DNA of 64,000 nucleotides from Bacteroidales bacterium (GTDB lineage Bacteria > Bacteroidota > Bacteroidia > Bacteroidales > VadinHA17), in the NCBI GenBank assembly GCA_009877105.1, contig WXFD01000024.1, forward strand, positions 8,811 through 72,810, read 5' to 3'. Under the pieces are notes generated by a model. That model ran no database searches. It was not told where the DNA came from and saw only the letters and a list, made by a program, of their open reading frames with translations. Positions 2,220-47,645 of this stretch are shown in pieces. The position numbers were made by a program, and so were the translations under genes. Numbering within the stretch: position 1 is the first letter of the stretch; each line of letters starts with the position of its first letter.

Positions 2220-2222
2220 ATA

Positions 2223-5180: not shown

Positions 5181-5227
5181 GGAGTTTGAAACTTATACTG
5201 ATCGTGGATAATTATTATAAATGAACT

Positions 5228-5235
5228 CAAATGTA
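5228..5235 (-). promoter_or_regulatory. Bacteroidota -7 promoter element (TACATTTG) for the GH3 fusion gene
   Basis: Matches TAnnTTTG, 47 nt upstream of the start codon. Confidence 0.6.
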
Positions 5236-5372
5236 CAAATTTTTATCACCCCTGCCACAGGACAAGGGACTGATTGCCCCGGGCGGGAAAAACGTAAATA
5301 AATTCAGACAATCCATTGCATGAGCGGTCAAATTATTAAATTGCAGGGGTTATTTGCAGTTGTATTTCAGAA

Positions 5373-6482: not shown

Positions 6483-6520
6483 TTATCCAGCCTGAATACA
6501 AAACTGATAATATTTAAAAA

Positions 6521-7567: not shown

Positions 7568-7574
7568 CCTGCGG

Positions 7575-8291
7575 ATGAAAGCAATGATAATGGCCGCCGG
7601 AAAAGGAACACGGCTCGGGAGGATAACGCAAACCATTCCCAAAGTTCTTGTTGACATAAACGGTAAGAGCCTTCTTCAGAGGGCCGTGGAAACCTGTTCA
7701 CGGTTTGGGTTTGATGATATTATAATAAACGTTCATTACCTGGCCGATCAGGTGGAGGAAGAGATTCAGCGGCTGCGAAGACTTGGGTTCAGATTGTCGG
7801 TTTCTGATGAAAGGGAGAGGCTCCTTGAAAACGGGGGAGGCTTGTTCAAGGCCAGGGATTTTTTCGATAATGATCCTTTCCTTGTATACAATGCCGATAT
7901 CGTGACCGATCTCGATCTCTCTGCACTTCTACGTTACCACCGGGAAAAGAATGGACTTGCAACACTTGCCGTGCGAAAGCGAGAAGGCAGCAGATTTTTC
8001 CTTGTTAACGGCGATGGAATGCTTAAAGGGTGGTGCAATAATGCCACGGGAGAAAAGATACTGGCCGGCGATCCCGGTTCCGCTCCCCTGACCGAAATCG
8101 GCTTCTCATCAATTCAGATCCTTGATCCCGTAATATTCAGTTATATGACCGAGGGGATCTATACCGTAGTCGATCTCTATCTTAAACTGGCACCATTGCA
8201 CAATATTTTTACTTACAGGCACGATTCCGGCTACTGGTTCAATGTAGGCACCCCTGAGAACCTTGAAAAGGTCAGGGAATATCTGGCCTAG
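7575..8291 (+). CDS. Nucleotidyltransferase, MurU-like
   Basis: MKAMIMAAGKGTRL...PKVLV; LLENGGGL; NADI. Start moved from the ORF-track 7467 to ATG 7575. Confidence 0.82.
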   Translation: MKAMIMAAGKGTRLGRITQTIPKVLVDINGKSLLQRAVETCSRFGFDDIIINVHYLADQVEEEIQRLRRLGFRLSVSDERERLLENGGGLFKARDFFDNDPFLVYNADIVTDLDLSALLRYHREKNGLATLAVRKREGSRFFLVNGDGMLKGWCNNATGEKILAGDPGSAPLTEIGFSSIQILDPVIFSYMTEGIYTVVDLYLKLAPLHNIFTYRHDSGYWFNVGTPENLEKVREYLA

Positions 8292-16500: not shown

Positions 16501-16762
16501 GGCAGTATCATCCTGGTTCGATCCCGGGAATACTCTTATGAAAGAGGCGGAAATACTGCTTCCTTCAGGCAGTATAAAAAGACCCGACAGAATTATCCTG
16601 AGAAACGGGAATGCTACGATTGTTGATTTTAAGTTTGGTGAAAAGGATCCTAAGCATGCAGAGCAAATCAGCCTGTATCGTAATTTACTTGTAATGATGG
16701 GCTATCGGAATACTGATGCCTACATCTGGTATGTTGATGCAAATCTCATAGAAAAAGCCTGA
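13505..16762 (+). CDS. addA: UvrD-family helicase/nuclease, AddA/RecB-like
   Basis: ASAGSGKT, TFTNKA, IDEFQDTS, VGDVKQSIYRFR, TIHKSKGLEF and YVAMTRA; C-terminal PD-(D/E)XK domain (RPDR...VDFK). Confidence 0.88.
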   Translation: MGEGTLTIYSASAGSGKTFRLASSYLAALFRSKYQYRRILAVTFTNKATAEMKGRILDQLDRLASGRDSEYLGDLVAATGKSEQDLRAAAKEILSSILHDYSRFSVSTIDAFFQKVIRAFARECGLNSAFSLEIDHSLILTTAVDEMIASTAKDRNLRNWLMRYILSNIDEEKSWNIKDSIIRLSEELFREKFRILSSGEIGNLKDKNFLLRYIEKLSTLRSSFEKRMISFGKKAEQIFSEFGLTDDMFYNKSRGVPGFIRDLSKGRIVRPGEKVRAALGNPPRWATGNPHPHLLSAVTGGLESVLKEAVRLFDETITDYNTAGSILQNFYALGILSDVLAKVHEVVSGENMFLLSDAGELLSLITGNDQTPFIYEKIGSRYENFMIDEFQDTSVLQWNNFRHLIENSMSEGNDNMVVGDVKQSIYRFRNSDWKILGDMLEKKTDNNRIKSIPLGRNYRSRSNIISFNNSFFSVLPVLLDRVFSESPGDTSFVKLYAEAVQSDPGRSTGGYVRIEFIGDDAEGEQMTDTEGRINKDTGKKQGNDWKAKVLKKIPGIIETILDKGYNASDVGILVRDGREGAEVMKTLLGYSGSLQESPGQHRFKVVSNDSLVFSGSNVITFIISALKVIVNPEDQISRALMTRYYLFAKEVPGADRINLFREDLISGSAGYLPDGYELFLEEAGKMTLYDAAEAIIDFFGVGDYSWNVSYLVSFMDIVLEYSRTRNTDFRSFIEWWESGGESKSLSLPSGMDAVRVLTIHKSKGLEFPVVILPFLSWNLDHRPSRRPVIWARPGRPPFNDIGIVPLKYSKDLSETIFNVEYHEERFNSFLDNLNLLYVAMTRAIDALYGFVPLNPVSSGGIASYIREAMQCDLNPAGLSGIVMSKMSDNEGRVFELGEVPLNQEHGREAGRSITLTSYHSGKRPQSLRLKLHAGNYFVTDGERLREMTNYGLIMHEVFAGISCREDIPEAVAGMVLEGKITENEAGALVERLQDLVSDPAVSSWFDPGNTLMKEAEILLPSGSIKRPDRIILRNGNATIVDFKFGEKDPKHAEQISLYRNLLVMMGYRNTDAYIWYVDANLIEKA

Positions 16763-17736
16763 TGCGGGAGAAAAACAAAGAAAGCAGGATATATCTCTGG
16801 GGGCATGAACGGCGGTTCAATGCATACTCAAACTATTTCAGGCAGCTGTATGGCACCAGGGTACAGAAAGTATCGGTTGATGCGGGATTCACCTGTCCGA
16901 ACAGGGACGGGAAAAAAGGTACGGGCGGATGCACGTACTGCGATAATCAGGCATTTAATCCATCTTATTGTGATCCTGTGAAATCAATAACACAACAGAT
17001 AAAGGAAGGCATAGAATTCCACAAATGGAGGTATCGCAGGGCAGTATCATATCTGACATATTTCCAGTCATACACGAATACATATGCCCCGCTGGAACAT
17101 CTCAGGAAGCTGTTCATGGAAGCCCTGGACTATCCGGGTGTGATCGGTCTGACAATCGGGACCAGGCCCGATTGCATCGGAAAGGAAAAGCTGGAATACC
17201 TGGGGGAACTGTCAAAAGATCACTATATTACAGTTGAATATGGAATAGAATCATGCTATAACAGGACCCTGGAAAGGATCAACAGGGGCCATAGTTTTGA
17301 AGAAGCTGTCGAAATCCTTAAGCAGACCGCGGAATATGGCATCCCTGCAGGAGCCCATTTCATATTTGGACTGCCCGGGGAGACTGTTGAAGATATGCTG
17401 TCCATGGCTGAGATAATTTCCTCCCTGCCCCTCAGAACAGTGAAGTTCCATCAGCTGCAGATACTGAAGAACACCCGGATGGAGAAGGAATACAGGAACA
17501 AGATACAGGATTTTCATATTTTCACCCTGGAGGAGTATATAAACTTCATTGTGAAATTCCTGGAGATGCTGAATCCGGCAATAGTAGTGGAACGCTTCAC
17601 TGGAGAAGTTCCGCCGCGTTTCAGGGTTAATGAAGGCTTTGGCAATTACCGGTCTGAACAGATCCTTATCCTCGTGGAAAGACGGCTTGAAGAACTTGAC
17701 ACCTGGCAGGGGCGACTCTGCAAAACGATGAACTGA
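16762..17736 (+). CDS. TIGR01212-family radical SAM protein (YhcC/YtqA-like)
   Basis: GFTCPNRDG...GGCTYC (CX11CX2C); YFQSYTNTY, GTRPDC and INRGH. Confidence 0.92.
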   Translation: MREKNKESRIYLWGHERRFNAYSNYFRQLYGTRVQKVSVDAGFTCPNRDGKKGTGGCTYCDNQAFNPSYCDPVKSITQQIKEGIEFHKWRYRRAVSYLTYFQSYTNTYAPLEHLRKLFMEALDYPGVIGLTIGTRPDCIGKEKLEYLGELSKDHYITVEYGIESCYNRTLERINRGHSFEEAVEILKQTAEYGIPAGAHFIFGLPGETVEDMLSMAEIISSLPLRTVKFHQLQILKNTRMEKEYRNKIQDFHIFTLEEYINFIVKFLEMLNPAIVVERFTGEVPPRFRVNEGFGNYRSEQILILVERRLEELDTWQGRLCKTMN

Positions 17737-17763
17737 TCAATGATGTTTTATCCTGAATAATAG

Positions 17764-20664
17764 ATGGAATACTTTCTGGAACGCATTGCAAGGATATTGA
17801 CCGACGGTTTCGTTGACCGGCTCGATACACAGTGCATTGTGTTCCCCAGCAGGAGGGCAGGTTTGTTTTTCATGAAGTATCTTGCCGACAGGGTTGATAA
17901 ACCCGTCTGGGCCCCGTCGGTAATGACAATAAATGATCTATTCCGTTTATTCTCCCCACTCAGGCTTGCGGATAATGAAGTCCTTCTTTTTGAGCTTTAC
18001 AAGGCATTCCGGTCAGTCAGAAAAACGACAGAAACTTTTGATGATTTTTATTACTGGGGAGGCATGCTGCTGAACGATTTTGACGATATTGACAAATACC
18101 TGGCAGATCCGGCTTCAATATTTCGAAATGTCCGTGATCTTAAAATGATCGATCGTCAGTTCGGCGGCCTTAGTCAGCACCAGGCTGAGGTAGTGCAAAA
18201 ATTCTGGGTGAACTTTGAACCCGGTAAACCAACACCCGAGAAAAAACAGTTTGAAGAAACCTGGTATATACTGAACGATCTTTACAATGCATTCAGGGAG
18301 GCTCTCAGACAGAAAAGGCTTGCATATGAGGGTATGATATTCAGGGATGCCATTGAAAGGAAAGGGTGGCAGAATCCAAAGGCACTCCGGTGGGACAAAA
18401 TTCATTTTGCAGGATTCAATGCGCTGAATGAGTGTGAAAAGACACTGATGAGCAGTCTGAAAAATAACGGAAAAGCCAGGTTCTACTGGGATTATGATAA
18501 TTCATACCTCGGTTCGAAGGATGTGAATTCAGCGGGATATTTTCTCAGAGAAAACATCCTGTCCTTTGGCAACGATATGCCGGCCGACTGGAGCTATGAT
18601 ACGCTTCTCACGGATAAATCGGGTACTGTAAGACGGACCGTGATTGAAACATCATCCGACGTTGCACAGGTTAAACTGGTTTCCCGTCTCACTGCCGAAA
18701 CGGATGATCCGGAACAGGGCTCTGATCATCAGACTGCAATTGTCCTTGCTGATGAAAATCTGCTGATTCCACTGTTATCGAGCCTTCCTGAAAAGAGGGA
18801 TCATGTGAATGTAACCATGGGGTACCCTATGAGGGAGACGCCGGTTTATCAGCTTGCAAAGAGCCTTCTCGATTTACAGTCCAATGCCAGGGAGAAAGAC
18901 GGCCGTGTCAGCTTTCATCATTCAGACGTAATGAAGGTGTTGGAAAACAGTCTTGTGTCACCGCTGATCGGAAAGGAGGGGAAGTTACTGGCCAGGGAGG
19001 TTGCGAACGGCAATTCTGAATATATACCTTCTGATTATTTTGGTTCATCGGGATTTACCAGGATTATATTTGAAAAACAGGATGATCCTCCGATGCTGGC
19101 GGAATATCTCAGAAAGATATTTTTCTTTATCGCCAGGGAAGATACTGAGGAAATGTCGGACCAGCCCGGAACATTCATGACAAAAAAAATAAGGAATGAA
19201 TTTATTTACAGGGCAGTGCTTTCGATTAACCGGATGAAGACGCTCACGGGTGATCCTGAAGTGAATTTTACGGTGAGAACCTTTGCGGCCATGCTTGAAA
19301 GGATTCTCCGAGCCCAGTCGGTACCGTTCATCGGTGAACCGCTTAAAGGGATCCAGATAATGGGACTGCTTGAGACCCGAACCCTTGATTTCCGGAACAT
19401 TATAATTCTTTCAGTTAATGAAGGAGTTCTGCCATCTCTTACAACTGCATCCTCATTCATTCCGTTCAGCTTGCGCGAGGCATTCGGCCTGCCCTCGATC
19501 AATCACCAGGAATCGGTTTATGCATACCATTTTTACAGGCTTCTTCACAGGGCCCGGAATGTGACATTTATTTACAATTCCGGCTCAGAAGGTTTGAGGA
19601 GCGGAGAAATAAGCAGGTTTATTCTGCAGATGAAGTACGGATCTGTTGTAGCACAGCCTGACCATCTGAGCCTGAATCTTGAAATAAAGAATCCTGCATC
19701 CCCCGGGGAATTCCTGGAAAGAACGGAGACAATGAACCTGAAACTAATGTCGAGGTTCAGCGGTAACGCCGGCGCGAAGATCATTTCCCCCTCGGCAATA
19801 AACGTCTGGCTCGGATGCAGGATGAAGTTCTGGTACCGTTATGTGAATGATATAAGGGAACCGGTGAAGCAGAAGGGAGAAATAGATCCGGCAACATTGG
19901 GAAGTATTTTTCATGATGTTGCCAAAAGACTTTATATGCCCTACCTTGGACAAACAATCGAAGCTTCGGGTTTTGAAGCTCTTGGGAAGAACAGGGAATA
20001 TCTGGGCATATTGATAGATACCGCTGTCAGGGAGCACTTTCCGGATAACAGCGATTCCTATTCAGCGCTTAATGAGCTGATCTCTGAAAATGTACTTATG
20101 ACCTACATTTCAAGAATCCTGGAAACTGACAGGAAATATGCTCCTGTCAGGATCATTGCCCTGGAAAAACCTGTTCAGTTCAGGATTGGATCACCAGCAG
20201 AAAAAAGAGAAGCCGGGTTCCTGGTAGGCGGTATTATTGACAGGATAGACAGTACCGGGGGAACAACAAGAATAGTCGATTACAAGACCGGTTCGGTGGC
20301 TGATCATATAAAAGCTATAGGGGAGCTTTTCGAGGATGACAGGAAAAGGGACATTGACTGCTGGCTGCAGGCATTGTTGTACTGCGAAGGGTACATTTCA
20401 GGAAGTTCCGATCCCGTCGTCGCACCTGCAATCTACAAGATCAGAAGAATTCCCGGGGACAGGCCGGCTGAGATGCTGAGCATAAAAGTGCCGGGAACAG
20501 ATGAGGTTGTAGTCGGGGATTATAATATGATAAGGGATGAATATCTTGATGGACTGCAAAAAACAATAAAGGCCATGTTCGATATTGACGAACCATTTTA
20601 CATGACCCGTGATTGGGTGGGGAAATGTTCCTACTGTGAATACAGGAGGCTATGTAAAAGATAA
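17764..20664 (+). CDS. addB: AddB-like PD-(D/E)XK nuclease subunit
   Basis: VFPSRRA, QIMGLLETR, SPSAI...C, GIIDRID...IVDYKTG; C-terminal CSYCEYRRLC Fe-S ligands. Confidence 0.82.
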   Translation: MEYFLERIARILTDGFVDRLDTQCIVFPSRRAGLFFMKYLADRVDKPVWAPSVMTINDLFRLFSPLRLADNEVLLFELYKAFRSVRKTTETFDDFYYWGGMLLNDFDDIDKYLADPASIFRNVRDLKMIDRQFGGLSQHQAEVVQKFWVNFEPGKPTPEKKQFEETWYILNDLYNAFREALRQKRLAYEGMIFRDAIERKGWQNPKALRWDKIHFAGFNALNECEKTLMSSLKNNGKARFYWDYDNSYLGSKDVNSAGYFLRENILSFGNDMPADWSYDTLLTDKSGTVRRTVIETSSDVAQVKLVSRLTAETDDPEQGSDHQTAIVLADENLLIPLLSSLPEKRDHVNVTMGYPMRETPVYQLAKSLLDLQSNAREKDGRVSFHHSDVMKVLENSLVSPLIGKEGKLLAREVANGNSEYIPSDYFGSSGFTRIIFEKQDDPPMLAEYLRKIFFFIAREDTEEMSDQPGTFMTKKIRNEFIYRAVLSINRMKTLTGDPEVNFTVRTFAAMLERILRAQSVPFIGEPLKGIQIMGLLETRTLDFRNIIILSVNEGVLPSLTTASSFIPFSLREAFGLPSINHQESVYAYHFYRLLHRARNVTFIYNSGSEGLRSGEISRFILQMKYGSVVAQPDHLSLNLEIKNPASPGEFLERTETMNLKLMSRFSGNAGAKIISPSAINVWLGCRMKFWYRYVNDIREPVKQKGEIDPATLGSIFHDVAKRLYMPYLGQTIEASGFEALGKNREYLGILIDTAVREHFPDNSDSYSALNELISENVLMTYISRILETDRKYAPVRIIALEKPVQFRIGSPAEKREAGFLVGGIIDRIDSTGGTTRIVDYKTGSVADHIKAIGELFEDDRKRDIDCWLQALLYCEGYISGSSDPVVAPAIYKIRRIPGDRPAEMLSIKVPGTDEVVVGDYNMIRDEYLDGLQKTIKAMFDIDEPFYMTRDWVGKCSYCEYRRLCKR

Positions 20665-31802: not shown

Positions 31803-32369
31803 TCAGGGCAATTTGCTGAGTTTGTTAATTGCGCTTATCCGGGGCTGGGCGGGAGGTATCACTTCGGGATATCCGAGAGCCAGGATCCCTGCGATTTTTC
31901 CCTCTTCCGGGATCCCGAATAATGACCGGGCCTGAGGTGTGCTTCCGAATGAGAGCCATACGCCGGCTATCTGTTTTTCCCATGCAGCAAGGAGAATGTT
32001 CTGGATAGCAGCTGCAGCCGACATCGGAAAGTCATATCTGTCGAGATCGGTAAGTGCGGGAGCACAGGTTACTGCCAGTATAACCGGTGCATCGCCGAAG
32101 TTCATGGAGAAATTGCGGATAACCTGCTTGCGCTCTTCAGGTAAGTCGGGATTAAGCAACGGCCCTGACTCCATGGCCTTCCTGTATGCCACTGCCAGTT
32201 TGCCACGCGTTTCCGGGCCTGCAAGGATGAATTCCCATGGCTGATTGTTCCCATGCGATGGCGCCCAGGTACCGGCTTCAAGAATATCCAGCAACGTTTC
32301 GTCTGATATAGCTTTGGAGTTGAATCTGCGCACTGTCCTCCTGTTAAGGATTGCTTCTTTAAGTTCCAT
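31803..32369 (-). CDS. Nitroreductase family protein
   Basis: RRTVRRF, APSHGNNQPW, AIQNILLAA and ALGYP. Confidence 0.92.
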   Translation of the reverse strand: MELKEAILNRRTVRRFNSKAISDETLLDILEAGTWAPSHGNNQPWEFILAGPETRGKLAVAYRKAMESGPLLNPDLPEERKQVIRNFSMNFGDAPVILAVTCAPALTDLDRYDFPMSAAAAIQNILLAAWEKQIAGVWLSFGSTPQARSLFGIPEEGKIAGILALGYPEVIPPAQPRISAINKLSKLP

Positions 32370-32455
32370 TGTTTCCTTTGAAATTATTTGATTGGTTATA
32401 TCGGGATCATTGATCTTGTCGGGAAAAACCGATGCCTCTTTTCATTTTGCAAGGT

Positions 32456-32836
32456 CTATAGGGTCTGGGTAATCGTATCGGGCTGTATTTCGAACATGGC
32501 CCTGGCCCATGGAAACCTTTGCTTCAATTCGTTGTATTCATCGCCTTCCGAGATAAAAGCCAGTGTACCGTGGATGAGGAATCCTGTCCCCTTGGAATGG
32601 AATCCCTGAACCTCCCTGCTTCCGAGGGTCATTACGATCTTATTGTTTTTTCGGACAATAGCTTCTGTAGTTCTCATGCCGCCGGCCGGACCGATAATTT
32701 TTCCGCCGGTGGTAACCTTCAGGTAACTGTTCCATGTATTTACCATATGGATGCCGTTATCGTCAAGCATTGCAATGGCTACAACCCCCTCATGCTTCAG
32801 TACCTCCAGCAGCTTCTCAGGTATCAGGGTTTTCAT
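32456..32836 (-). CDS. Split-barrel FMN-binding protein (PNPOx-like)
   Basis: EGVVAI, HMVNTWNSY, TLGSREV, GTGF and terminal QTL, as in the Desulfovibrio FMN-binding protein. Confidence 0.88.
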   Translation of the reverse strand: MKTLIPEKLLEVLKHEGVVAIAMLDDNGIHMVNTWNSYLKVTTGGKIIGPAGGMRTTEAIVRKNNKIVMTLGSREVQGFHSKGTGFLIHGTLAFISEGDEYNELKQRFPWARAMFEIQPDTITQTL

Positions 32837-33039
32837 GTATGAAGTATGTGTGAAAAATTAAAAATACAATGAATTTTATGTCACATTATTCCTGAAGTTG
32901 TTTTTATCATAAACTTGCTGCGACATGAGAGCTCCCGCAATATTGGATTTCGTTTTTATTAATTGACCATTACTGCTGTTTTCCTGTTTTTAATCAAATG
33001 ATTTTATGTATGTTTATATCAAACTAACCTTATACTGAA

Positions 33040-35406
33040 ATGAAAAAACCGTTCCAGAAACATGCAACAAGTCTTTTCATGGCTTTGATATTGATGCTCT
33101 TTGGTTTTCCGGCTGTTTCCCAGTTAAATGAAGCTTCCCCCGGAGCAGCGCCGTATAAAAATCCTTCAGTGCCTGTCATGCTGAGGGTGGAGGATCTTCT
33201 TTCCCGCATGACACTCGCGGAGAAGATCGGGCAGTTAAATATGCCTTGTGTATATGAATCTGCTCTGGGAAATGATATTGAATCCCGGACCGTTAACTGT
33301 AAAACGCTTGCTGAGGGTACTTTTCAGGACTATCTCGGTCCCATAGGAGGTTTTTTCACCCTGGCGAACACGATATTGCATGAAGGCACACTTCAGCAGG
33401 CAAATTTCTTCAATGAGCTTCAGAAGATAGCGGTTGAAAAAACACGGCTTGGCATTCCGCTCCTGCAGACAGAAGAGGGAACACACGGGCTGATGTGTTC
33501 GGGAGGAACCATCTTTCCTGAGGGACTGGCAATTGGCAGTACCTGGAACATGGATCTGGTCAGCAGGATGTATACGGTAGCAGCCTGTGAGGCAAGGTCT
33601 GTGGGGATTCACCAGTTGTTCACCCTGGTTGTTGAACCCAACAGGGATCCAAGGCTTGGCCGGAATCAGGAAGGATTCAGTGAAGATCCGTTTTTCTGTT
33701 CACGTATGGCCGAGACAATAGTCAATGCAGTGCAGGGAACAGATGTAAGCGCAAATGACAAGGTCGTGGCCGGCCTGTGTCATTATCCGGGCCAGAGTCA
33801 GCCAAACAGCGGAATGGAAAGAGGAGCGATGGAGATTTCGGAAAGGCAGTTGCGGGAAGTTTTTCTTCCTCCATGGATCGCCGGGGTAAAAAAAGCCGGA
33901 GCTCTTGGAGTGATGGCCACTTACCCGGCAGTTGACGGGATCCCGACCCATGCATCTGAATTCCTGCTGACAAAGATACTCAGAAATGAGCTAGGGTTTA
34001 AAGGATTGGTACTGAGCGAAGGAGGCGGACTTAACACACTGTTGTACACGGGTGTTGCCGAGAACGATCAGCAGGCCGGTGAACTAGCGCTCAGGGCGGG
34101 ACTTGACGTTGGAATTTCATTCGAAGACGGTTATCTTAAACCGCTGATCGACGCCGTTAAGGAAGGGAGAGTGTCAATGGAGCTGATTGACAGATCTGTA
34201 AGACGGGTACTTGAACTTAAGTTCAGGCTTGGGTTATTCGACAAACCTTATGTTGATCCTCAAAGGGCTTTGGATGTTACCCATACCAAAGAAAGCCGTG
34301 AACTTGCCCTTGATGCTGCCCGGGAAGGAATTGTTCTCCTGAAGAATGAGAAAAACCTTCTGCCTGTCAGAAAGAATATCAGGAAAGTAGCGGTCATCGG
34401 ACCCAATGCCGACAATGAAAGAAATCAGCTTGGTGATTACGCGGCACATGTTATTCTCCAGGAGATAACAACGGTACTAGACGGAATAAGATCAATGGTG
34501 TCTCCCGGAACTGTTGTCGAGTATGTAAAAGGATGTGATGTTACCGGTAATAAAGTGAATGAACTGGCACGGGCCCGCAGAGCTGCCTCCGGTGCCGACC
34601 TGGCTGTTGTTGTTCTGGGAGAAAATGAATGGCAGGCCCCTGACAAGACCGGTACCTCAGGGGAGGGATATGATGTGGCCAGCCTCGATCTGACAGGGCT
34701 GCAGGAAGATCTTCTGAGAGCCGTGCACTCATCCGGAACTCCGGTTGTACTGGTACTCATTAACGGCAGGCCGCTTTCCGTCCGCTGGGCAGCGGAAAAC
34801 ATCCCGGCCATTATTGAGGCCTGGATCCCCGGTGAAGCGGGTGGGACAGCTGTTGCAGAGATCATTTTCGGCGACTGCAATCCCAGCGGTAAACTGGCGG
34901 TCACCATACCCAGGCATGTCGGGCAGATACCCTTCTATTACAATTATATGCCCGAAAAGCTTTACTGGATGGAAAAAGGATGGGGAAAAGCCTATGCCGA
35001 CATGCCTGCAACACCATTATGGGAATTCGGATTTGGATTGAGCTATACTACATTCATGTACAGCAACCTGAAAATTAACCCTGAAGTTACCGGGATCTTT
35101 GGTGAAGTGAAAGTGAGCCTGGATGTGGAAAACACCGGCAAGAGGGCGGGCAGGGAAACGGTGCAGCTGTATGTCAGGGACAGGCATGCATCTGTTACAG
35201 TACCTGTGAAGGAACTGAAGGGATTCGAGAAGATAAGCCTTGCACCGGGTGAAAAAAAGACAGTTGAATTCAGGCTTACCCATGATGACCTGGCTTTGTA
35301 TAACAGGAACATGGAGTTTGTTACCGAACCCGGAATATTCGAGGTCATGGCTGGCAGCTCCTCAGCCGATATCAGACTGAAAGGAAAGTTTGAGCTGAAA
35401 AACTAG
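33040..35406 (+). CDS. Secreted GH3 glycoside hydrolase (BglX/xylosidase-like architecture) with atypical active-site motifs
   Basis: RVEDLLSRMTLAEKIGQL, EEGTHG, RDPRLGR, IVLLKN, NPSGKL, FGFGLSYT; C-terminal Fn3-like ELKGFEKI. Confidence 0.9.
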   Translation: MKKPFQKHATSLFMALILMLFGFPAVSQLNEASPGAAPYKNPSVPVMLRVEDLLSRMTLAEKIGQLNMPCVYESALGNDIESRTVNCKTLAEGTFQDYLGPIGGFFTLANTILHEGTLQQANFFNELQKIAVEKTRLGIPLLQTEEGTHGLMCSGGTIFPEGLAIGSTWNMDLVSRMYTVAACEARSVGIHQLFTLVVEPNRDPRLGRNQEGFSEDPFFCSRMAETIVNAVQGTDVSANDKVVAGLCHYPGQSQPNSGMERGAMEISERQLREVFLPPWIAGVKKAGALGVMATYPAVDGIPTHASEFLLTKILRNELGFKGLVLSEGGGLNTLLYTGVAENDQQAGELALRAGLDVGISFEDGYLKPLIDAVKEGRVSMELIDRSVRRVLELKFRLGLFDKPYVDPQRALDVTHTKESRELALDAAREGIVLLKNEKNLLPVRKNIRKVAVIGPNADNERNQLGDYAAHVILQEITTVLDGIRSMVSPGTVVEYVKGCDVTGNKVNELARARRAASGADLAVVVLGENEWQAPDKTGTSGEGYDVASLDLTGLQEDLLRAVHSSGTPVVLVLINGRPLSVRWAAENIPAIIEAWIPGEAGGTAVAEIIFGDCNPSGKLAVTIPRHVGQIPFYYNYMPEKLYWMEKGWGKAYADMPATPLWEFGFGLSYTTFMYSNLKINPEVTGIFGEVKVSLDVENTGKRAGRETVQLYVRDRHASVTVPVKELKGFEKISLAPGEKKTVEFRLTHDDLALYNRNMEFVTEPGIFEVMAGSSSADIRLKGKFELKN

Positions 35407-35437
35407 GTAATCATCGGGAATGAGGAATACTGCATAT

Positions 35438-37186
35438 TCATTCTGCTGAATAGCTGTTTCCCTGTATTTTTACTGACTTTACCAGGGCTTTACCCGAAAT
35501 GAAACTGTAATTTGTTCCCATGTGTTCAAGGGTGACATCACTGCCATTGATCTCCAGTGTAATCTGATTGCTTCCGTCCCTGTGAACAATGAGATCTGCA
35601 AGCAGAAGAGCTTTTTCAATGCCGTCGCCCCTCTGGAAATTCCAGACTTCATCGGGAAGGGCAAGCCTTTTTTCATCATATATTGATTCATTTTCAAGAT
35701 CCATGAGAATCCCGTAAACCTCATTCAAGTCCTTCTCCTCAAGATCCTTGAAACATACCGGGTTTCTTTCAATGGCTGCCTTGATGAACGGTACCCAGTC
35801 AATCATGTCCATCTGCCGGTAAACATAAAGCGAAAGCAGCGCTGTTTCCGAAATGCCTGCCATATCATTGATCTTTTTTAAGATGCTTTCGCGTGTGTCA
35901 TCAATTCCAATCTCTGGTTCGAGGCTTTTTCTGAATGACTTGGCCGGATCGGGCAGCCTCGGATCGGTAACAATAAAAACCCTGAGGTCTGAAAACATTT
36001 CGTCAAGCAGCGAACTGGGCACTGAGCCGGCCAGCTTCTCAAATTCCTTAATGAATTCATCAATGCTTATGCTCTTGTTCTCCTGGAAGATTTTTTCCAC
36101 ATTGTTCAGGAGAATTTTTCCGTTTATGGGACTCAGATGAAATTCATCGCCTTCTATCTCATTTACAAGCTGCTCACGTGTTTCTTTTGTTAAATTGTGT
36201 TTGCTTGTGTGTTCATATTCGAACATCTTTTCAAGACTTATGTATAAGTGCTTCCCTGAACAGTCGCAATAATACTGGAAAAGAGATTTGTACCTGGGCT
36301 TGAACCGAAGGAAATTAATGAATATTGTGTCAGTCAGCTCAGTGCGAAGGAAACTTTTAAGTTTTGTGCTGAAAGTTTCGTAATCTTTTCTGCTTATTGT
36401 CGCCTCATTGTAAATAATGTGAATGAATCCTGTTATATGGGTGACCATTGTGATTTTTTCATTTTCCAGGGCACGTCTGGCTTTCTGTGACAATGAGGTC
36501 CCGTTAAACCACATGTTCTTTGTAACAATTCTCCTGTTGTTTGTGATAAGCCCTTCCTTTTCAGTGACGAAATTCTGAGAATGCAGGGGAGTTGCTATAA
36601 GGAATATTTTTTCCAGCGGGATCCTGCCGACAATAAACAATGCTGCCGCATAAAGCGACGATAGTGAAACACATTCCCCCGCTCCGGTGGTAAACCCGTC
36701 CTTGTACCTGAATGCGGTCATTGCTTCCACCGTTTCGGTCTTCCAGTACGGAATTACTTCCGAATCATATTTATCCAGCCCGAAGTGCTTCCTGATATCA
36801 ATATCGAAATAATACTTATCCCCCTCGTATCCGAATAGTGCATTTGATTGTTTCATGATCTCAAGGTCAAAGAAATCACTGAACCGGGACATTTCCCTGG
36901 TTTTTGTAGTGAGTCCCCAGGTTGACAGATCGAGATTGAAAACATAATTGTCAATAATAAACTGTTTTATCCGGTTCACCTTGTAATTGAAACTTTTTGA
37001 TTCAATATTGCTGAACCATGGATCATCCCTCCATTTCCAGATAACCGGCGACATGATATTGGCGATTACAAGCGGAAAAAAGAGTTCCGGAAAAATAAAA
37101 ATCTCCATATCGGAGAGTGTAAATGCCGAAGAATATTTTTCAAGCTTTTTAATTTCTGTAACGGATGGATTATTATCAGGCACCAT
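35438..37186 (-). CDS. Hypothetical protein with two transglutaminase-like motifs
   Basis: 582-aa ORF with no signal peptide; GAGECVSL...PLHSQNF...ITNN and a second PDEVWNFQRGDGIEKA motif. Confidence 0.7.
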   Translation of the reverse strand: MVPDNNPSVTEIKKLEKYSSAFTLSDMEIFIFPELFFPLVIANIMSPVIWKWRDDPWFSNIESKSFNYKVNRIKQFIIDNYVFNLDLSTWGLTTKTREMSRFSDFFDLEIMKQSNALFGYEGDKYYFDIDIRKHFGLDKYDSEVIPYWKTETVEAMTAFRYKDGFTTGAGECVSLSSLYAAALFIVGRIPLEKIFLIATPLHSQNFVTEKEGLITNNRRIVTKNMWFNGTSLSQKARRALENEKITMVTHITGFIHIIYNEATISRKDYETFSTKLKSFLRTELTDTIFINFLRFKPRYKSLFQYYCDCSGKHLYISLEKMFEYEHTSKHNLTKETREQLVNEIEGDEFHLSPINGKILLNNVEKIFQENKSISIDEFIKEFEKLAGSVPSSLLDEMFSDLRVFIVTDPRLPDPAKSFRKSLEPEIGIDDTRESILKKINDMAGISETALLSLYVYRQMDMIDWVPFIKAAIERNPVCFKDLEEKDLNEVYGILMDLENESIYDEKRLALPDEVWNFQRGDGIEKALLLADLIVHRDGSNQITLEINGSDVTLEHMGTNYSFISGKALVKSVKIQGNSYSAE

Positions 37187-41654: not shown

Positions 41655-41812
41655 CTTTTGTAATGTCTGTCGGTTTGTACGGAGCTTTTTAACCAATGAA
41701 TTCTGCATGTAACTGCGGCACTTGCGAATTCCTTAACTTAAAAACTTTTTTTTAGTGACTGCGATATTATAACTTGCATAAAAATCAACCGGTTATTATC
41801 ATTAGTTTTCCT

Positions 41813-44614
41813 ATGATCCCTTTCGTATTAAAGATCAGATATTTACTACTTTTTTTCATCTGCCTTATTCCTGTTTCCCTGAACTCCCAGAAACTTGAAA
41901 AGGTTAATATCTCAACCGTTTCAGGCCTCTGTATAGACAGTATTACATTAACTGACAACAATAATCTTGTAATTAAACGGAAAAAACCTTTTTTAAGTTT
42001 CCAGATTGATCAAAAAAACTATAACACAGGAACGCAGGGCGTTATTGCTGAAGATTCCGTTATTCACGTGAGAACAGAGAATAAGGTCGGCCTGAGATTT
42101 AAACCATTGCCGGGGAATTTTCAGGTATGGGACTGCGAATTTGAAAATATATCCAGTGACACGGTTACCATAAGCAATGTATTGCCATTTGAAATTGACG
42201 ATGAGTCAGTCAGTATTACCGGTTACGGGACAGACGAACTGGCACGGGCCTGCCTCTTCCGGCCGGGATGCCGGCCTCTGAGGATCATTCTGCCCGACAA
42301 TGCATGGGAGCTGGGCTATACATCGTTCGGTATTGATGACGAATATTCGGTATGCAGCATGACACGGCGCAGAAATATTACCGGAGGGATCAGGCTCAGG
42401 TACGCCACAAAACTGCCTCCGGGAGCCAAAGTTCAGTACAGGATTTATTTTGAGGCTTTCAAGGGTACCTGGCAGGATGGATTGTCAGTAATGTTCAGGG
42501 AAAAATACCTGTATGACACTGAGAACTTCGACAATTCCCTTTATGAAAGACCGGATCTGAAGTGGATAAGGGAATCCTATCTGGTCGTTCTTCAAATGGC
42601 CTGGGACAGGGAATTCTTTGACAGGATCAGCGGTAAATATACTTACCCTGATGTTTTGAGAAACGGCATGAGTCGTTTTGGTCATATTGATGTATTTGGA
42701 ATCTGGCCAACATGGCCACGATTAGGTCTTGATCAGAGGAATCAATGGGATCTTTACAGGGACCTGCCGGGAGGGATTGCCCAGCTCAGAAATTTTGTCC
42801 GCTTGTCACATCAGAGCGGTACCAGGTTTTTCATTGCATATAATCCCTGGGATCTTAGCACACGGAAGGAAGATCATTTGAGAGGATTGGCACGAGTACT
42901 GAAGGAGACCGAAGCCGATGGCGTGGTGCTTGATACAAGGAGCAGCTCAAGTGCCGAACTTCAGTTGGCTGCCGACAGCGTGGGGAGAGGTATTGTTATG
43001 TACTCAGAGGGCATGGCTGTGCCTCGCGACATGCAGGGGATCATTTCCGGACGGGTCCATAATGCAATCTTTCTCAGCCCTGAACTAAATCTTAATAAGT
43101 TCATTAAACCCGATTTTTCAATTTTCAGGGTGTGTGATGTGGGGGAAGACATCCTCCACAGGGAAATTGCCATAGCTTTCTTTAACGGCTACGGAACTGA
43201 ACTTAACATGTACAGGCCCGGAGGCAGGGACGAAAATTACAATGATGATCTTGATTTCCTTGCCAAAACGACATTTATCCTGAGGCAGAATAATGATGCC
43301 TTCCTGGATAAGAACTGGATCCCTCTTATTGGATCAGTAGAAGACAACGTTTACATAAACCAGTGGCATTCCGGCCGGAAGAAGATTTTTACGGTCTTGA
43401 ATATGAACAGTAATGGAGTTAGAGACAGGATCCTGTGGATCGATGCTGACAGCGGCCTGCATTATGTTTCATTGTGGGATCATGAAAATCTTACCCCTGA
43501 ACTGGTTGACGGCAAGTTGTGCCTGCCGGTGAATGCTGACGGATGGCAGGCATCATACAACGGAACCAGGAGAGAGGGCTCGGTTGATTGTATTGCGGCA
43601 TTTCCCGTTATACTGAATTCCAGCCTTGAAGGTGATCGGATAAGGATTAGCAGCAATTCACCCGGGAAGCTGGTAGTTTGGAAGGGTTCTCCCGCGTATG
43701 GAGGAGAATCGAGGGAATTCAGCCTGAAGAGCGATACCACACTGAGTGTAAAGGATATGTTTGGATATTATGAAGGTAAGATCGTTATCCAGCTTCTCAG
43801 CGAAAAGATCCTCATGGATGAAAATATTATAAGGATCAAAGGCGGGCAGCCCTGGCTTATCAGCAAGGTTACAAGGACACCCAGGATGACAGAATACGAC
43901 CGGAACATGGTGCTTGTGCCCGGAACCGATTTCGCTTACTCAGTATCAGCATATGATAATTTCATTCCTTATCCTGCAACCGGCAATTATACCCATAAGA
44001 TCGACAGTTTTCTTATCGACAGATTTCCTGTAACCAATGAACAGTATTACGAGTTTATTTCTGCCTCGGGATACAGGCCTGCTGATACCACAAGGTACCT
44101 GAGACATTGGGAATATGGCATTTATAAGCCCGGCACGGAAAAATATCCGGTTGTATACGTGGGTTATGACGATATCAGGGCATATGCAAAATGGGCAGGG
44201 AAAAGACTGCCTACGGAGGCTGAATGGCAGCTTGCTGCCCAGGGTCAGGACAAAAGGCTCTGGCCATGGGGTAATGAGTTTCATGCGACTTTCTGTAATA
44301 ATGCATTCGGAAAATCAACTCCGGTCGACGCTTTTTCAAAGGGAGCCAGCCCGTATGGGGTAATGGATCTTGTAGGAAATGTATGGCAGGTTACAAATGA
44401 TATGTACTTCAACGGGTCCTATTATTTTCTCGTAATCAGGGGAGGAAGTTATTTCCGTCCCGATTCCAGCAGATGGTATATCCAGGGAGGCCCCCAGCCC
44501 CTCGACCGGACCCAGATCATGCTGCTGATATCACCTGGGTTTGACAGAAGCGCAACCGTAGGCTTCAGATGCGTGAAGGATATTGATCCGGATAATTATA
44601 AGGGAAAAAAGTAG
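41813..44614 (+). CDS. Secreted multidomain protein with C-terminal FGE-sulfatase (SUMF1-like) domain
   Basis: PVTNEQY, PVVYV, KRLPTEAEW, GNVWQ, RGGSY and GFRC; signal-like N-terminus; large unassigned N-terminal region. Confidence 0.82.
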   Translation: MIPFVLKIRYLLLFFICLIPVSLNSQKLEKVNISTVSGLCIDSITLTDNNNLVIKRKKPFLSFQIDQKNYNTGTQGVIAEDSVIHVRTENKVGLRFKPLPGNFQVWDCEFENISSDTVTISNVLPFEIDDESVSITGYGTDELARACLFRPGCRPLRIILPDNAWELGYTSFGIDDEYSVCSMTRRRNITGGIRLRYATKLPPGAKVQYRIYFEAFKGTWQDGLSVMFREKYLYDTENFDNSLYERPDLKWIRESYLVVLQMAWDREFFDRISGKYTYPDVLRNGMSRFGHIDVFGIWPTWPRLGLDQRNQWDLYRDLPGGIAQLRNFVRLSHQSGTRFFIAYNPWDLSTRKEDHLRGLARVLKETEADGVVLDTRSSSSAELQLAADSVGRGIVMYSEGMAVPRDMQGIISGRVHNAIFLSPELNLNKFIKPDFSIFRVCDVGEDILHREIAIAFFNGYGTELNMYRPGGRDENYNDDLDFLAKTTFILRQNNDAFLDKNWIPLIGSVEDNVYINQWHSGRKKIFTVLNMNSNGVRDRILWIDADSGLHYVSLWDHENLTPELVDGKLCLPVNADGWQASYNGTRREGSVDCIAAFPVILNSSLEGDRIRISSNSPGKLVVWKGSPAYGGESREFSLKSDTTLSVKDMFGYYEGKIVIQLLSEKILMDENIIRIKGGQPWLISKVTRTPRMTEYDRNMVLVPGTDFAYSVSAYDNFIPYPATGNYTHKIDSFLIDRFPVTNEQYYEFISASGYRPADTTRYLRHWEYGIYKPGTEKYPVVYVGYDDIRAYAKWAGKRLPTEAEWQLAAQGQDKRLWPWGNEFHATFCNNAFGKSTPVDAFSKGASPYGVMDLVGNVWQVTNDMYFNGSYYFLVIRGGSYFRPDSSRWYIQGGPQPLDRTQIMLLISPGFDRSATVGFRCVKDIDPDNYKGKK

Positions 44615-45867: not shown

Positions 45868-47298
45868 TTATACTTTTAGTTTCTTTTCAATCTCATTTAT
45901 CTGGTTTCTGAAATGTTTATCGGTGTCAATTAGATTATTGACGGTTTTGCATGCGTGCAGGACGGTTGCATGATCCTTCCCTCCGATATGTGAACCAATG
46001 CTGGCAAGCGATGCTTTTGTAAGGTTTTTTGAGAAATACATTGATACCTGTCTGGCCTGTACGATCTCTCTTTTCCTGGTTTTGCCCTGGATCAGTTCTA
46101 TTGGGATCTTATAATAGTCGCAAACTATTTTCTGGATGTATTCGATTGTAATTTCACGGCGTGAAGTACTTACAAGCTTCTCAACCATCTGCCGTGCAAG
46201 ATCAAGGGTTATCTCCTTCCTGTTCAGGGTTGATTGTGCATACAGTGATATCAATACTGCTTCAAGTTCCCTTATATTGTTGGTGATATTTTCGGCAAGG
46301 TATTCGAAAATCTCCTCTGGCAGTTCAATTCCGTCATTATATGCCTTCTTTTTGAGAATTGCCAGCCTTGTATCATAATCCGGGCGCTGAAGATCAGCCT
46401 GAAGCCCCCATTTGAACCTGGACAACAGTCTTTGTTCCATTCCCTGGAGTTCAACGGGCGGACGGTCACAGGTAAGGATCAGCTGCTTTCCCGACTGGTG
46501 GATATGATTGAATATGTGAAAGAACATATCCTGGGTTTTTTCCTTCCCGGCAAATTCATGAACGTCATCCAGTATCAGTACGTCAATCATCTGGTAAAAA
46601 TGAAGGAAGTCATTTTTATTGTTGTTCCTGACTGATTCTACAAACTGGGTTTGGAACTTGTTGGCATTTACATAAAGCACAACCTTGTCGGGATGTTTTT
46701 CCTTCACCAGAATACCGATTGCCTGTGCAAGGTGCGTTTTGCCAAGCCCTGAATCACCGTAGATCATCAGCGGATTGAAAGCAGTGCCGCCAGGATTATT
46801 GCCTACTGCGATCCCTGCCGATCTGGCAAGCCTGTTACATTCACCCTCAACGAAATTATTGAAATTGTAATCCGGATTGAGCCTGGGGTCGAAATGGACC
46901 TTTTTGATGCCCGGTATCACAAACGGATTTCTGATTGAAGGCTGGGTGACATCAAAGGGAACCTGTACAGGCTTGTTCTTGAGGTCGGTTTTGTTTCTCG
47001 ACGGATATTTCACCGTATACGGCTTTCCGTCGGAATAATTTGCATTCTCAAGCACTACGTTGTACTCGAGTTTTGCATCGGACCCAATCTCGCGTCTCAG
47101 GGTTTTTCTCAGGATGTCGATATACTGTTCTTCAAGATATTCATAGAAAAAAGGACTTGGAACCTGAATGGTAAGGACATTGTTTTCAAGTTTCAGGGGA
47201 ATTATTGGATCAAACCATGTTTTAAAACTGACGGATGGAATAATATCCTTTATTATCTGCAGACAATTATTCCAAACATCAATGTGCGATTTATTCAT
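45868..47298 (-). CDS. dnaA: Chromosomal replication initiator DnaA
   Basis: YGDSGLGKTHL, LILDDV, RLLSRFKWGL and GGKDHATVLHAC; likely start ATG 47298. Confidence 0.98.
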   Translation of the reverse strand: MNKSHIDVWNNCLQIIKDIIPSVSFKTWFDPIIPLKLENNVLTIQVPSPFFYEYLEEQYIDILRKTLRREIGSDAKLEYNVVLENANYSDGKPYTVKYPSRNKTDLKNKPVQVPFDVTQPSIRNPFVIPGIKKVHFDPRLNPDYNFNNFVEGECNRLARSAGIAVGNNPGGTAFNPLMIYGDSGLGKTHLAQAIGILVKEKHPDKVVLYVNANKFQTQFVESVRNNNKNDFLHFYQMIDVLILDDVHEFAGKEKTQDMFFHIFNHIHQSGKQLILTCDRPPVELQGMEQRLLSRFKWGLQADLQRPDYDTRLAILKKKAYNDGIELPEEIFEYLAENITNNIRELEAVLISLYAQSTLNRKEITLDLARQMVEKLVSTSRREITIEYIQKIVCDYYKIPIELIQGKTRKREIVQARQVSMYFSKNLTKASLASIGSHIGGKDHATVLHACKTVNNLIDTDKHFRNQINEIEKKLKV

Positions 47299-47645
47299 GG
47301 AGGCATTTTCGTTGAAAGGTTCCAAAATAGGAAAAATCAGGAGGCAAGATTTACAAAAAAAATGTCAAAAAAAAATTTATTTTCACTTGATAAATTCAAA
47401 AAAAGTATATGGTTTTAACCATCAGTAACTTAAAGAAAAAAATATTTCTGCTTATTATATATATCTGTATATCAATATGTTACGATCAGGTTGTTTTGTT
47501 TGCCCATGTGTCACAATTCCTTAGGTGTTCTGATCGGTTTTTATGCAATTTTAATATGCAAAGCCGGGGTGATTTTTCAATCGGTCAGTCAGGAAATTTT
47601 TAGATCAAGATAACCCTTTTTTATAAGAAATAAAAATGTTTCAGG

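Follow-up and report, generated by a model that had tools for sequence, protein, structure and literature searches.

A 64,000-nucleotide stretch of DNA from a Bacteroidales bacterium (contig WXFD01000024.1; hereafter the window) holds, at 33040-35406 on the plus strand, a gene whose product belongs to GH3 by sequence and, judged by its aligned catalytic apparatus, fails two hallmark residues of that family. Glu327 stands at the position of the nucleophilic aspartate, and the Lys of the Lys-His pair is replaced by Cys247. GH3 ranks among the largest families of glycosidases, and the aspartate that serves as its nucleophile is regarded as invariant. We found both substitutions, together with other residue changes, in a single clade of homologs from at least four phyla, and we are highly confident that this clade is a functional, distinct GH3 subfamily. 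As to its activity, we favor, with a little less than half of our confidence, an active periplasmic exo-glycosidase in which Glu327 would serve as the nucleophile and the substrate would be a cationic de-N-acylated amino sugar, the latter being read from sequence and gene context.

The closest match in the PDB was 7zb3/8c7f (phmmer E = 5e-172), a GH3 beta-xylosidase of Thermotoga maritima, and the alignment had no gap around the sites concerned. GLVLSEGGG aligned with GIVVSDYFA, CHYPG with KHFAG, RDPRLGR with RDPRWGR and TSGEGYD with TTGESRD. Entry 8c7f is titled as the T. maritima beta-xylosidase 'mutant (D281N, E517Q)', and because of the alignment to its D281 and E517, Glu327 was assigned to the nucleophile position and Glu542 to the acid/base position. 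By alignment-counted positions, the changes from the T. maritima enzyme are Asp281 to Glu327, Lys201 to Cys247, Trp162 to Leu206 and Tyr282 to Gly328, the last in the column of the canonical +1 platform Trp/Tyr. The two proteins agree in Glu-Glu at 145/146, in both Arg residues and in the His, Tyr and acid/base Glu. The first-pass annotation of this DNA had allowed that a structural alignment might place another Asp at the nucleophile position; when the protein was aligned with solved GH3 structures, no other residue took it. All four motifs that it had quoted as departures from the GH3 pattern (GLVLSEGGG, LCHYPG, RDPRLGR and MATYP) were present, with the codon of Glu327 where it had put it. 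MATYP in place of MxxYN is the weakest of these, because the N is the consensus in only 52% of Asp-type relatives.

The window protein therefore has no (S/T)D(W/Y) nucleophile signature after barrel strand 7, and of the Lys-His pair it has retained the His and lost the Lys. It does have the C-domain acid/base Glu of the BglX/ExoI type (Glu542), and the Arg of RDPRWGR and the Asp/Glu after strand 3, which belong to the -1 subsite, are present as Arg202, Arg205 and Glu146. In the available text of PMC4757417, subsite -1 of Lin1840, a Listeria GH3 glucosidase, is formed by Asp91, Arg149, Lys191, His192, Asp270 and Glu473, which superpose across GH3 glucosidases, and Trp271, beside the nucleophile, makes subsite +1. 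Set against these six residues (Asp/Glu, Arg, Lys, His, Asp and Glu in BglX-type enzymes generally), the window protein is unchanged at the Arg, His and acid/base Glu, and has Glu at the position of Asp91. It differs at two of the six, with Lys changed to Cys and the nucleophile Asp changed to Glu, and the +1 Trp is Gly. A review, in its accessible portion, gives the GH3 nucleophile as Asp (PMC6887791). In the GH3 enzyme SN243, according to the accessible part of 10.1101/2022.04.25.489410, the Lys of the KH motif bonds O4 of the bound sugar and the His bonds O3. The other GH3 gene of the window (2226-5180, minus strand) keeps the canonical motifs KHFPGHGDTKTDSH and GLVITDAM, just as the first reading of the sequence had it.

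The features of the gene and its product, all on the plus strand, are as follows.

33040..35406, +: Glu-type GH3 open reading frame, 788 amino acids, stop included (open reading frame, Pfam and AlphaFold2)
33040..33123, +: probable Sec signal peptide, residues 1-28 (MKKPFQKH...FPAVSQ), without a lipoprotein Cys (by eye)
33211..34218, +: GH3 N-terminal (beta/alpha)8 domain, residues 58-393 (PF00933, 4.8e-58)
33475..33477, +: Glu146, at the -1 subsite Asp/Glu position, Asp91 of Lin1840 (alignment and the available text of PMC4757417)
33520..33522, +: Glu161, clade-specific (column comparison)
33634..33636, +: Glu199, clade-specific, just after strand 192-197 (column comparison and AlphaFold2)
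33643..33663, +: RDPRLGR, residues 202-208, with Arg202 and Arg205 kept and Leu206 for Trp (alignment)
33778..33783, +: Cys247-His248, replacing the Lys-His of KH(F/Y) (codon 33778-33780 is TGT)
33817..33819, +: Glu260, clade-specific, 13 residues past Cys247 (column comparison)
34018..34023, +: Glu327 (GAA, 34018-34020) at the nucleophile position, followed by Gly328 (alignment to solved GH3)
34123..34125, +: Glu362, clade-specific, just after strand 357-359 (column comparison and AlphaFold2)
34330..35046, +: GH3 C-terminal (alpha/beta) sandwich, residues 431-669 (PF01915, 1.5e-57)
34663..34665, +: Glu542, at the acid/base position, Glu517 of the T. maritima enzyme (alignment)
35155..35364, +: Fn3-like domain, residues 706-775 (PF14310, 2.5e-26)

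The open reading frame was uninterrupted and carried all three domains, which agrees with the earlier description of it as full-length and intact. Both GH3 domains scored far above the Pfam cut-offs (197.5 bits against 27 for Glyco_hydro_3 and 195.3 bits against 31 for Glyco_hydro_3_C), which places the protein in the GH3 sequence family. Besides these and the Fn3-like domain, the Pfam scan gave no GH2 or GH35 membership, and the window protein itself has no CE4 domain. Phmmer matched 90 GH3 sequences of the PDB at E <= 0.001. The AlphaFold2 model, made from a 94-sequence alignment, had a mean predicted local distance difference test score (pLDDT) of 95.0 and a predicted template-modelling score (pTM) of 0.93, and superposed on solved GH3 enzymes with template-modelling (TM) scores of 0.84-0.94 (Foldseek). 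The overlay included BglX-type enzymes (Lin1840 4zo6, BT_3567 5xxl, Pseudomonas aeruginosa BglX 6r5i and JMB19063 3u48), which have the same fold and domain order at 33-34% identity and a TM score of about 0.85. In the model, the first 30 residues had pLDDT values of 46-64 and a helix at 8-21. The protein is probably Sec-exported, without a lipobox Cys; the signal peptide was called by eye. A search of the ESM Atlas returned generic GH3 clusters only, and a promoter and terminator scan of 32300-35900 gave no signal above shuffled expectation.

The substitutions are not private to one genome, and their joint occurrence goes far beyond chance. A word-indexed homolog search gave 7,967 proteins at E <= 0.001 among 7,998 scored candidates. 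The best 120 of the 7,967 were 66-100% identical, and Glu occupied the nucleophile column in all 119 of these with at least 650 amino acids. Among the 150 representatives at 50% identity listed by an exhaustive search, 137 had Asp in this column, 11 had Glu, one had Ser and one was a fragment without the column. Sequences of at least 650 amino acids from both searches were pooled into one alignment of 125 Glu-type and 133 Asp-type proteins. Here the Lys column was Cys in 124 of the 125 Glu-type proteins and Ser in the other one, as against Lys in 128/133 of the Asp-type, so that Cys and Glu co-occurred in 124/125. The Trp column was Leu in 120/125 and Trp in 116/133, respectively, and the column after the nucleophile was Gly in all 125 members. 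The acid/base Glu was kept in 124/125, the Arg202 position in 124/125 and the Arg205 position in 125/125; taken together, the Arg, His and acid/base Glu of subsite -1 were conserved in 124-125/125. Glu146 was present in 125/125 clade members and also in 94/133 Asp-type relatives.

Four further carboxylates marked the clade. Glu161 was found in 125/125 members, the commonest Asp-type residue being Gln; Glu199 in 125/125, with Asp in 104/133 Asp-type relatives; Glu260 in 124/125, with Asn in 93/133 and Asp in 33/133; and Glu362 in 123/125. All four are rare in Asp-type relatives. Glu260 lies in the loop after AlphaFold2 strand 243-249. By column comparison, the pocket region has lost one positive charge and gained carboxylates, and the pocket probably becomes acidic. 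Other near-invariant residues of the clade were Leu196 (Pro in the Asp-type), Pro250, Trp279 (Phe in the Asp-type) and Pro296. The clade also has insertions at 67-72 (NMPCxY), about 100-124 and about 640-650, the last of these within the C-terminal sandwich domain and carrying Trp643 and Trp648. The invariant Glu161/199/260/362 and the three insertions set the window protein apart from the T. maritima enzyme. Cys247 stayed Cys in members where Cys70, Cys153 or Cys220 differed, and since it persists when each of them varies, a structural disulfide with any of the three was rejected.

Using the window protein we collected 54 genomic loci, and 57 of their 63 GH3 open reading frames longer than 500 amino acids were Glu-type. 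Among the 57, the Lys column held Cys in 52 and Thr in three, and two were truncated before it. The six remaining frames were 27-45% identical, five of them canonical Asp-type and one too poorly aligned. The loci came from at least four phyla, namely Bacteroidota (Bacteroidales, Rikenellaceae, Prolixibacteraceae and Cytophagales), Acidobacteriota, Planctomycetota (Phycisphaerae and Sedimentisphaerales) and Fidelibacterota, and all Glu-type loci were from metagenome-assembled genomes (MAGs) or metagenome assemblies. Of 151 genomes sampled from the order to which the window belongs, just two had a Glu-type gene, its own and that of one congener; another 22 carried matches of 40-44% identity, and the 20 places fetched were all Lys+Asp-type. 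Because of this low frequency in its own order and its presence in at least four phyla, the clade is patchy within lineages yet spread over several phyla. Tandem Glu-type paralogs, up to four per genome (L026 and L030), all kept Glu327 and Glu542.

A phylogenetic tree (FastTree, LG+gamma, 696 columns, midpoint root) was built from 17 Glu-type sequences, to which the 125 had been reduced at 72% identity, the 133 Asp-type representatives and P0241. The Glu-type sequences formed a single clade with support of 1.0. Its sister (support 0.995) was a pair of sequences, P0227, which is Lys+Asp, and P0128, which has Ser in the Lys column, Met in the Trp column and Glu at column 260, and retains the nucleophile-column Asp, Asp199 and Gln161. 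From this intermediate, which is one lineage only, it seems that the loss of Lys and Trp preceded the Asp-to-Glu change. Mean pairwise identity was 70% within the clade against 40% among the Asp-type proteins, a comparison biased by the clade not having been reduced to 50% clusters.

The first-pass annotation had argued for a distinct subfamily rather than decay. Besides the single clade and the invariant residue set, selection speaks for the same conclusion. The ortholog in a Rikenellaceae MAG (L001) was 88% identical and stood in the same gene order, the eleven genes compared being 83-91% identical. Relative to this ortholog, the GH3 gene had a ratio of nonsynonymous to synonymous substitution rates (dN/dS) of 0.095, similar to the 0.078-0.148 of seven neighbouring genes (Nei-Gojobori). 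We therefore rejected the possibility of a pseudogene, given this dN/dS and the invariant catalytic residues. The exact gene sequence was found in activated-sludge and biofilm metagenomes. Contigs of RNA libraries from four runs (four studies) lay on the gene at >= 99%; those of two runs spanned codons 247 and 327 with no change listed. The depth of such contigs cannot rank expression, and parts left uncovered mean nothing. As homologs and loci share the residue set and no change is listed at the two codons in the RNA-library contigs, a private mutation or a sequencing error was rejected too.

The gene context in other genomes bears on the substrate. Among the 125 Glu-type proteins, 68 had at least 980 amino acids with an N-terminal PF01522 domain (CE4 deacetylase, from precomputed domains). 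The fused domains appear to be intact CE4 enzymes: a TFDD-like motif was found in 65/68 and HxxxH in 67/68, the definitions of the motifs (Asp-Asp and His-x3-His) being taken from general knowledge. For the neighbour survey, open reading frames of the 54 loci were clustered and cluster representatives annotated, with counts over the 47 loci that have a full Glu-type frame. One cluster of DegT-family aminotransferases was present in 17 of the 47 loci, in 14 of them within three genes and on the same strand. A ceramidase-like gene of about 445 amino acids, with a weak match to the neutral-ceramidase N-domain, was present in 15, an APC amino-acid-type permease in nine and a CE4 fusion in nine. 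At least one of these four amine-related features was found in 29/47 loci. GH30 genes occurred in seven loci, and a Gfo/Idh/MocA oxidoreductase in six, always within three genes and on the same strand; its best NCBIfam match was the BT_2158_fam glycoside 3-dehydrogenase (1.4e-29, below the cut-off). The rest included SusC (six), sulfatases (five), carbon-nitrogen hydrolase (four), URO-D/MtaA-like (three), GH42 (three) and GNAT (two). By eye, the ceramidase-like proteins and the oxidoreductase begin with a signal peptide or a twin-arginine leader, a feature absent from most of the full-length DegT proteins. The best solved relative of the DegT proteins was KdnA, the 8-amino-3,8-dideoxy-octulosonate transaminase (5k8b, 2e-82; the next best was 5e-57). 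KdnA acts on a free sugar and not on a nucleotide sugar.

As controls we took about 9 kb on either side of 20 Lys+Asp-type GH3 genes in 16 genomes of the window's order. At E <= 1e-10 with at least half of the query covered, none of the 20 loci had a homolog of the DegT, ceramidase-like, APC, oxidoreductase, URO-D-like, carbon-nitrogen hydrolase, DUF4832 or CE4 proteins. The CE4 fusions and the amine-handling neighbours thus lend indirect support to the new substrate that the first-pass annotation had offered as one option; the substrate itself we infer.

A few neighbours are of another kind. An MttB-family (trimethylamine methyltransferase-like) gene and URO-D/MtaA-like genes adjoin the Glu-type GH3, the DegT gene or a stand-alone CE4 (L002:14267-15784 and L017:3629-4939; in the window's own genome L067:7347-8597 and L073:8382-9608). 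They give a hint of a substrate with N- or O-methyl groups, in too few cases to build on.

A retaining exo-glycosidase is the simplest reading because the nucleophile-column carboxylate and the acid/base Glu are virtually invariant and the sugar pocket is otherwise conserved. The protein would then be an exo-acting retaining beta-glycosidase in which Glu327 attacks C1, Gly328 accommodates the additional methylene and Glu542 acts as the acid/base. Its -1 pocket would be rebuilt, with the O4-binding Lys (Cys247), the Trp (Leu206) and the +1 aromatic residue (Gly328) lost and the four gained carboxylates holding a positively charged sugar. The Lys-to-Cys change, the added carboxylates, the deacetylase fusion and the links to aminotransferase, amidase and permease genes together suggest that a cationic de-N-acylated amino sugar would sit in subsite -1. 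The N-acyl group would be removed first, by the CE4 domain fused in about half of the family or by the separate CE4 gene of the window's genome. The released amino sugar may be imported by the APC permease and deaminated in the cytoplasm by the KdnA-like DegT aminotransferase. Catalysis by Glu327, the cationic substrate and this order of steps are what we infer from the observations above; the kind of amino sugar (glucosamine, or a 3-, 4- or 6-amino sugar) is beyond what sequence can decide.

PgaB-type fusions, which act on poly-GlcNAc, combine a CE4 N-deacetylase with a glycosidase domain whose preference is for de-N-acetylated sugar. We take the CE4-GH3 proteins to be alike in this respect, the PgaB glycosidase domain presumably being from another family. 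A functional analogy is also offered by GlmA, a GH35 exo-glucosaminidase, and CsxA of GH2, in which a neutral-to-acidic change in subsite -1 recognises NH3+. According to the available text of PMC6566704, an Asn-to-Asp change relative to beta-galactosidases lets GlmA bind the NH3+ of glucosamine, the D178N mutant is inactive, a Cys of GlmA hydrogen-bonds O4, and Glu394 of CsxA plays the role of the GlmA Asp. The archaeal GlmA acts after a deacetylase, which resembles the CE4-then-GH3 order proposed here. The two enzymes differ from the window protein in belonging to unrelated families and folds, in having a proven substrate and in keeping their families' usual nucleophile.

Several points weigh against an amino-sugar glycosidase with a glutamate nucleophile. 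An Asp-to-Glu change at a retaining nucleophile usually lowers activity. The clade is known from sequence, and its closest PDB entry is 42% identical. In (beta/alpha)8 enzymes, positions just after barrel strands line the active site, and it is by such positions that Glu161, Glu199, Glu260 and Glu362 are presumed to lie in the pocket. The solved relatives of the fused CE4 domains are all weak (best E 3e-5); besides peptidoglycan and chitin deacetylases they include acetylxylan esterases, and CE4 enzymes can remove O-acetyl groups. Eighteen of the 47 loci have no amine-related partner, and the neighbours are mixed, with GH30, sulfatases, SusC/D, GH42 and the twin-arginine-exported Gfo/Idh/MocA enzyme among them. 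The contrast in DegT genes (17/47 against 0/20 controls, Fisher p = 0.0014) overstates independence, since the loci are related to one another and all controls were drawn from a single order. The window gene has no such partner among the housekeeping genes around it, and its link to a pathway is therefore drawn from other genomes. The RNA-library contigs are consistent with transcription and are no proof of it, as such libraries can contain DNA.

Some of these points would suit an ordinary beta-xylosidase or beta-glucosidase, in which the Asp-to-Glu change is conservative and offset by Gly328, the fused CE4 is an acetyl-xylan esterase and the pair trims xylo-oligosaccharides. We consider this unlikely. 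The closest solved structures are indeed of a beta-xylosidase (7zb3, 7zdy, 7zeq and 7zgz, with 8c7f as the inactive mutant), with the same three-domain layout, 42% identity and Foldseek TM scores of 0.88-0.94; Glu146 is the residue of most near relatives; and acetylxylan esterases are among the weak CE4 matches. The best NCBIfam scores were also to beta-xylosidase and BglX models, but all were far below the curated cut-offs: 540.2 against 666 for NF011678 (BglX beta-glucosidase), 557.7 against 1350 for NF041579 (Flavobacteriia beta-xylosidase) and 521.4 against 1050 for NF052329 (xylosidase/arabinosidase). The O4-binding Lys is gone in 125/125 members, and four extra invariant carboxylates serve no role with a neutral sugar. 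A Pfam scan of recurrent neighbour clusters, and a fuller scan of five loci, showed no xylanase-type family, while DegT, amidase-like and APC genes recur; and canonical relatives in the window's order lack such amine-type neighbours (0/20).

Rather less probable is that the GH3 fold has been turned to a different chemistry, as a lyase on 3-keto-glycosides, through a reaction of Cys247-His248 or as a metal site of Cys, His and Glu. In one option, Glu327 would be the base at C2-H of 3-keto-glycosides made by the adjacent twin-arginine-exported Gfo/Idh/MocA enzyme. The nearby oxidoreductase gene fits this, but it is present in only 6/47 loci. Cys247 is no obligate disulfide partner of Cys70, Cys153 or Cys220, and Cys, His and several Glu together may resemble a metal site; the Thr of three locus paralogs and the Ser of one distant member at this position speak against an essential thiol. 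Besides, Glu542 and both sugar-pocket Arg are kept exactly as in hydrolases. A non-catalytic periplasmic binder that holds or senses oligosaccharides, the other option of the first-pass annotation, would suit the absence of the canonical Asp and Lys and the lower activity expected of a Glu nucleophile, but it is very unlikely and the least likely of all, as the nucleophile column is Glu in 125/125 without drift, the acid/base Glu, Arg and His are kept in 124-125/125, dN/dS is low, the tandem paralogs keep the residue set and fusion to a CE4 with intact catalytic motifs implies sequential catalysis.

Returning to the amino-sugar glycosidase, we can extend it to a broader proposal, which is possible and more doubtful: the Glu-type clade may be the first GH3 branch with a glutamate nucleophile, and may supply the glycosidase for a so far undescribed route by which uncultured bacteria of sludge, soil and sediment salvage amino sugars. 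CE4 and the ceramidase-like amidase would strip N-acyl groups in the periplasm before the GH3 enzyme cleaves the cationic sugar; after import and deamination, Gfo/Idh/MocA enzymes would reduce the resulting keto sugar. In a still bolder version, the pocket would have given up hydrolysis altogether and become a lyase site or a metal/thiol site for 3-keto-glycosides. In open-access papers and bioRxiv we found no description of a Glu-nucleophile GH3, of the Glu-type clade or of a CE4-GH3 fusion, and the clade is widespread yet unstudied. Source databases label its proteins 'beta-glucosidase' or 'glycoside hydrolase family 3 C-terminal domain-containing protein', and given the former pipeline label, hundreds of entries would probably be mis-named. 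The existence of a conserved clade across several phyla with Glu, Cys and an acidified pocket would mean that the catalytic centre of GH3 is open to rebuilding. The genes that accompany it suggest a pathway for the catabolism of amine-bearing sugars, one for which no enzymes have been described in these bacteria. Sugars of this kind (chitosan-like and de-N-acetylated exopolysaccharides, and cell-wall and lipopolysaccharide amino sugars) are a large pool of nitrogen and carbon in sludge, soils and sediments.

The window's own genome (assembly of 4.0 Mb, 98.9% complete) has only one Glu-type GH3, and its orthologs of the DegT, CE4 and APC partners are dispersed. The DegT ortholog (78% identity) adjoins URO-D-like, Gfo/Idh/MocA, GH5 and TonB receptor genes. 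The stand-alone CE4, 62% identical to the fused domain and on another contig, adjoins another URO-D-like gene and a SusC/SusD pair. The APC permease has 50% identity. Around the window gene itself, a polysaccharide utilization locus (PUL) or operon was looked for and rejected: nearby lie genes for a nitroreductase, a PNPOx-like protein and an unknown 582-amino-acid protein, besides housekeeping genes, and the L001 ortholog has the same non-PUL neighbours. The 582-amino-acid protein (35441-37186, minus strand) lies directly downstream of the GH3 gene and convergent with it. It has no Pfam or NCBIfam match, is 91% identical in L001, and its dN/dS of 0.078 is the lowest among the compared genes.

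A second amine-sugar-like cluster is found on contig C43 of this genome at about 374-382 kb (L068:2196-14372), where an MFS transporter, two Gfo/Idh/MocA, one GH42, two DegT and two ceramidase-like genes follow one another. On C10 (L069), a third ceramidase-like/DegT pair adjoins genes of uronate catabolism. That a ceramidase-like amidase and a DegT enzyme are repeatedly encoded side by side seems undescribed.

The other GH3 of the window, at 2226-5180, is a 985-amino-acid fusion of a NagZ-type GH3 domain and a serine beta-lactamase-fold domain. It lies in a peptidoglycan-recycling-like cluster (1533-8291) with a weak DUF5009 protein (5373-6479), an APH-family kinase (6521-7564) and an NTP-transferase (7467-8288). 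The latter two resemble what we take to be the MurNAc salvage pair AmgK/MurU. NagZ-type enzymes, which include the glucuronidase SN243, share the family's N-terminal domain with the window protein. In the NagZ motif KH(F/I)PG(H/L)GX4D(S/T)H, as given in the accessible text, the catalytic His stands 13 residues past the Lys, an offset equal to that of Glu260 from Cys247 in C-H-Y-P-G. In NagZ enzymes the Lys and the nucleophilic Asp are both present, and the acid/base is an Asp-His dyad (available part of 10.1101/2022.04.25.489410), whereas the Glu-type clade has the C-domain Glu in this role. We considered the SN243 beta-glucuronidase as a relative and rejected it, since in the same partial source it is NagZ-type with Asp415.

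Elsewhere in the window, a 398-amino-acid open frame at its edge (1-1194, plus strand) has no Pfam match. An AddAB-like pair at 13505-20661, a UvrD-like helicase of 1085 amino acids and a PD-(D/E)XK nuclease of 966, is split by a radical-SAM gene (16762-17733). The 946-amino-acid protein at 41774-44611 (plus strand) has a C-terminal FGE-sulfatase domain (formylglycine-generating enzyme-like) as its sole Pfam match, leaving about 700 N-terminal residues without one; in locus L013, an FGE-like domain is fused to a NapC/NirT cytochrome near a Glu-type GH3. The dnaA gene lies at 45871-47325 (minus strand), and the chromosomal origin may be nearby.

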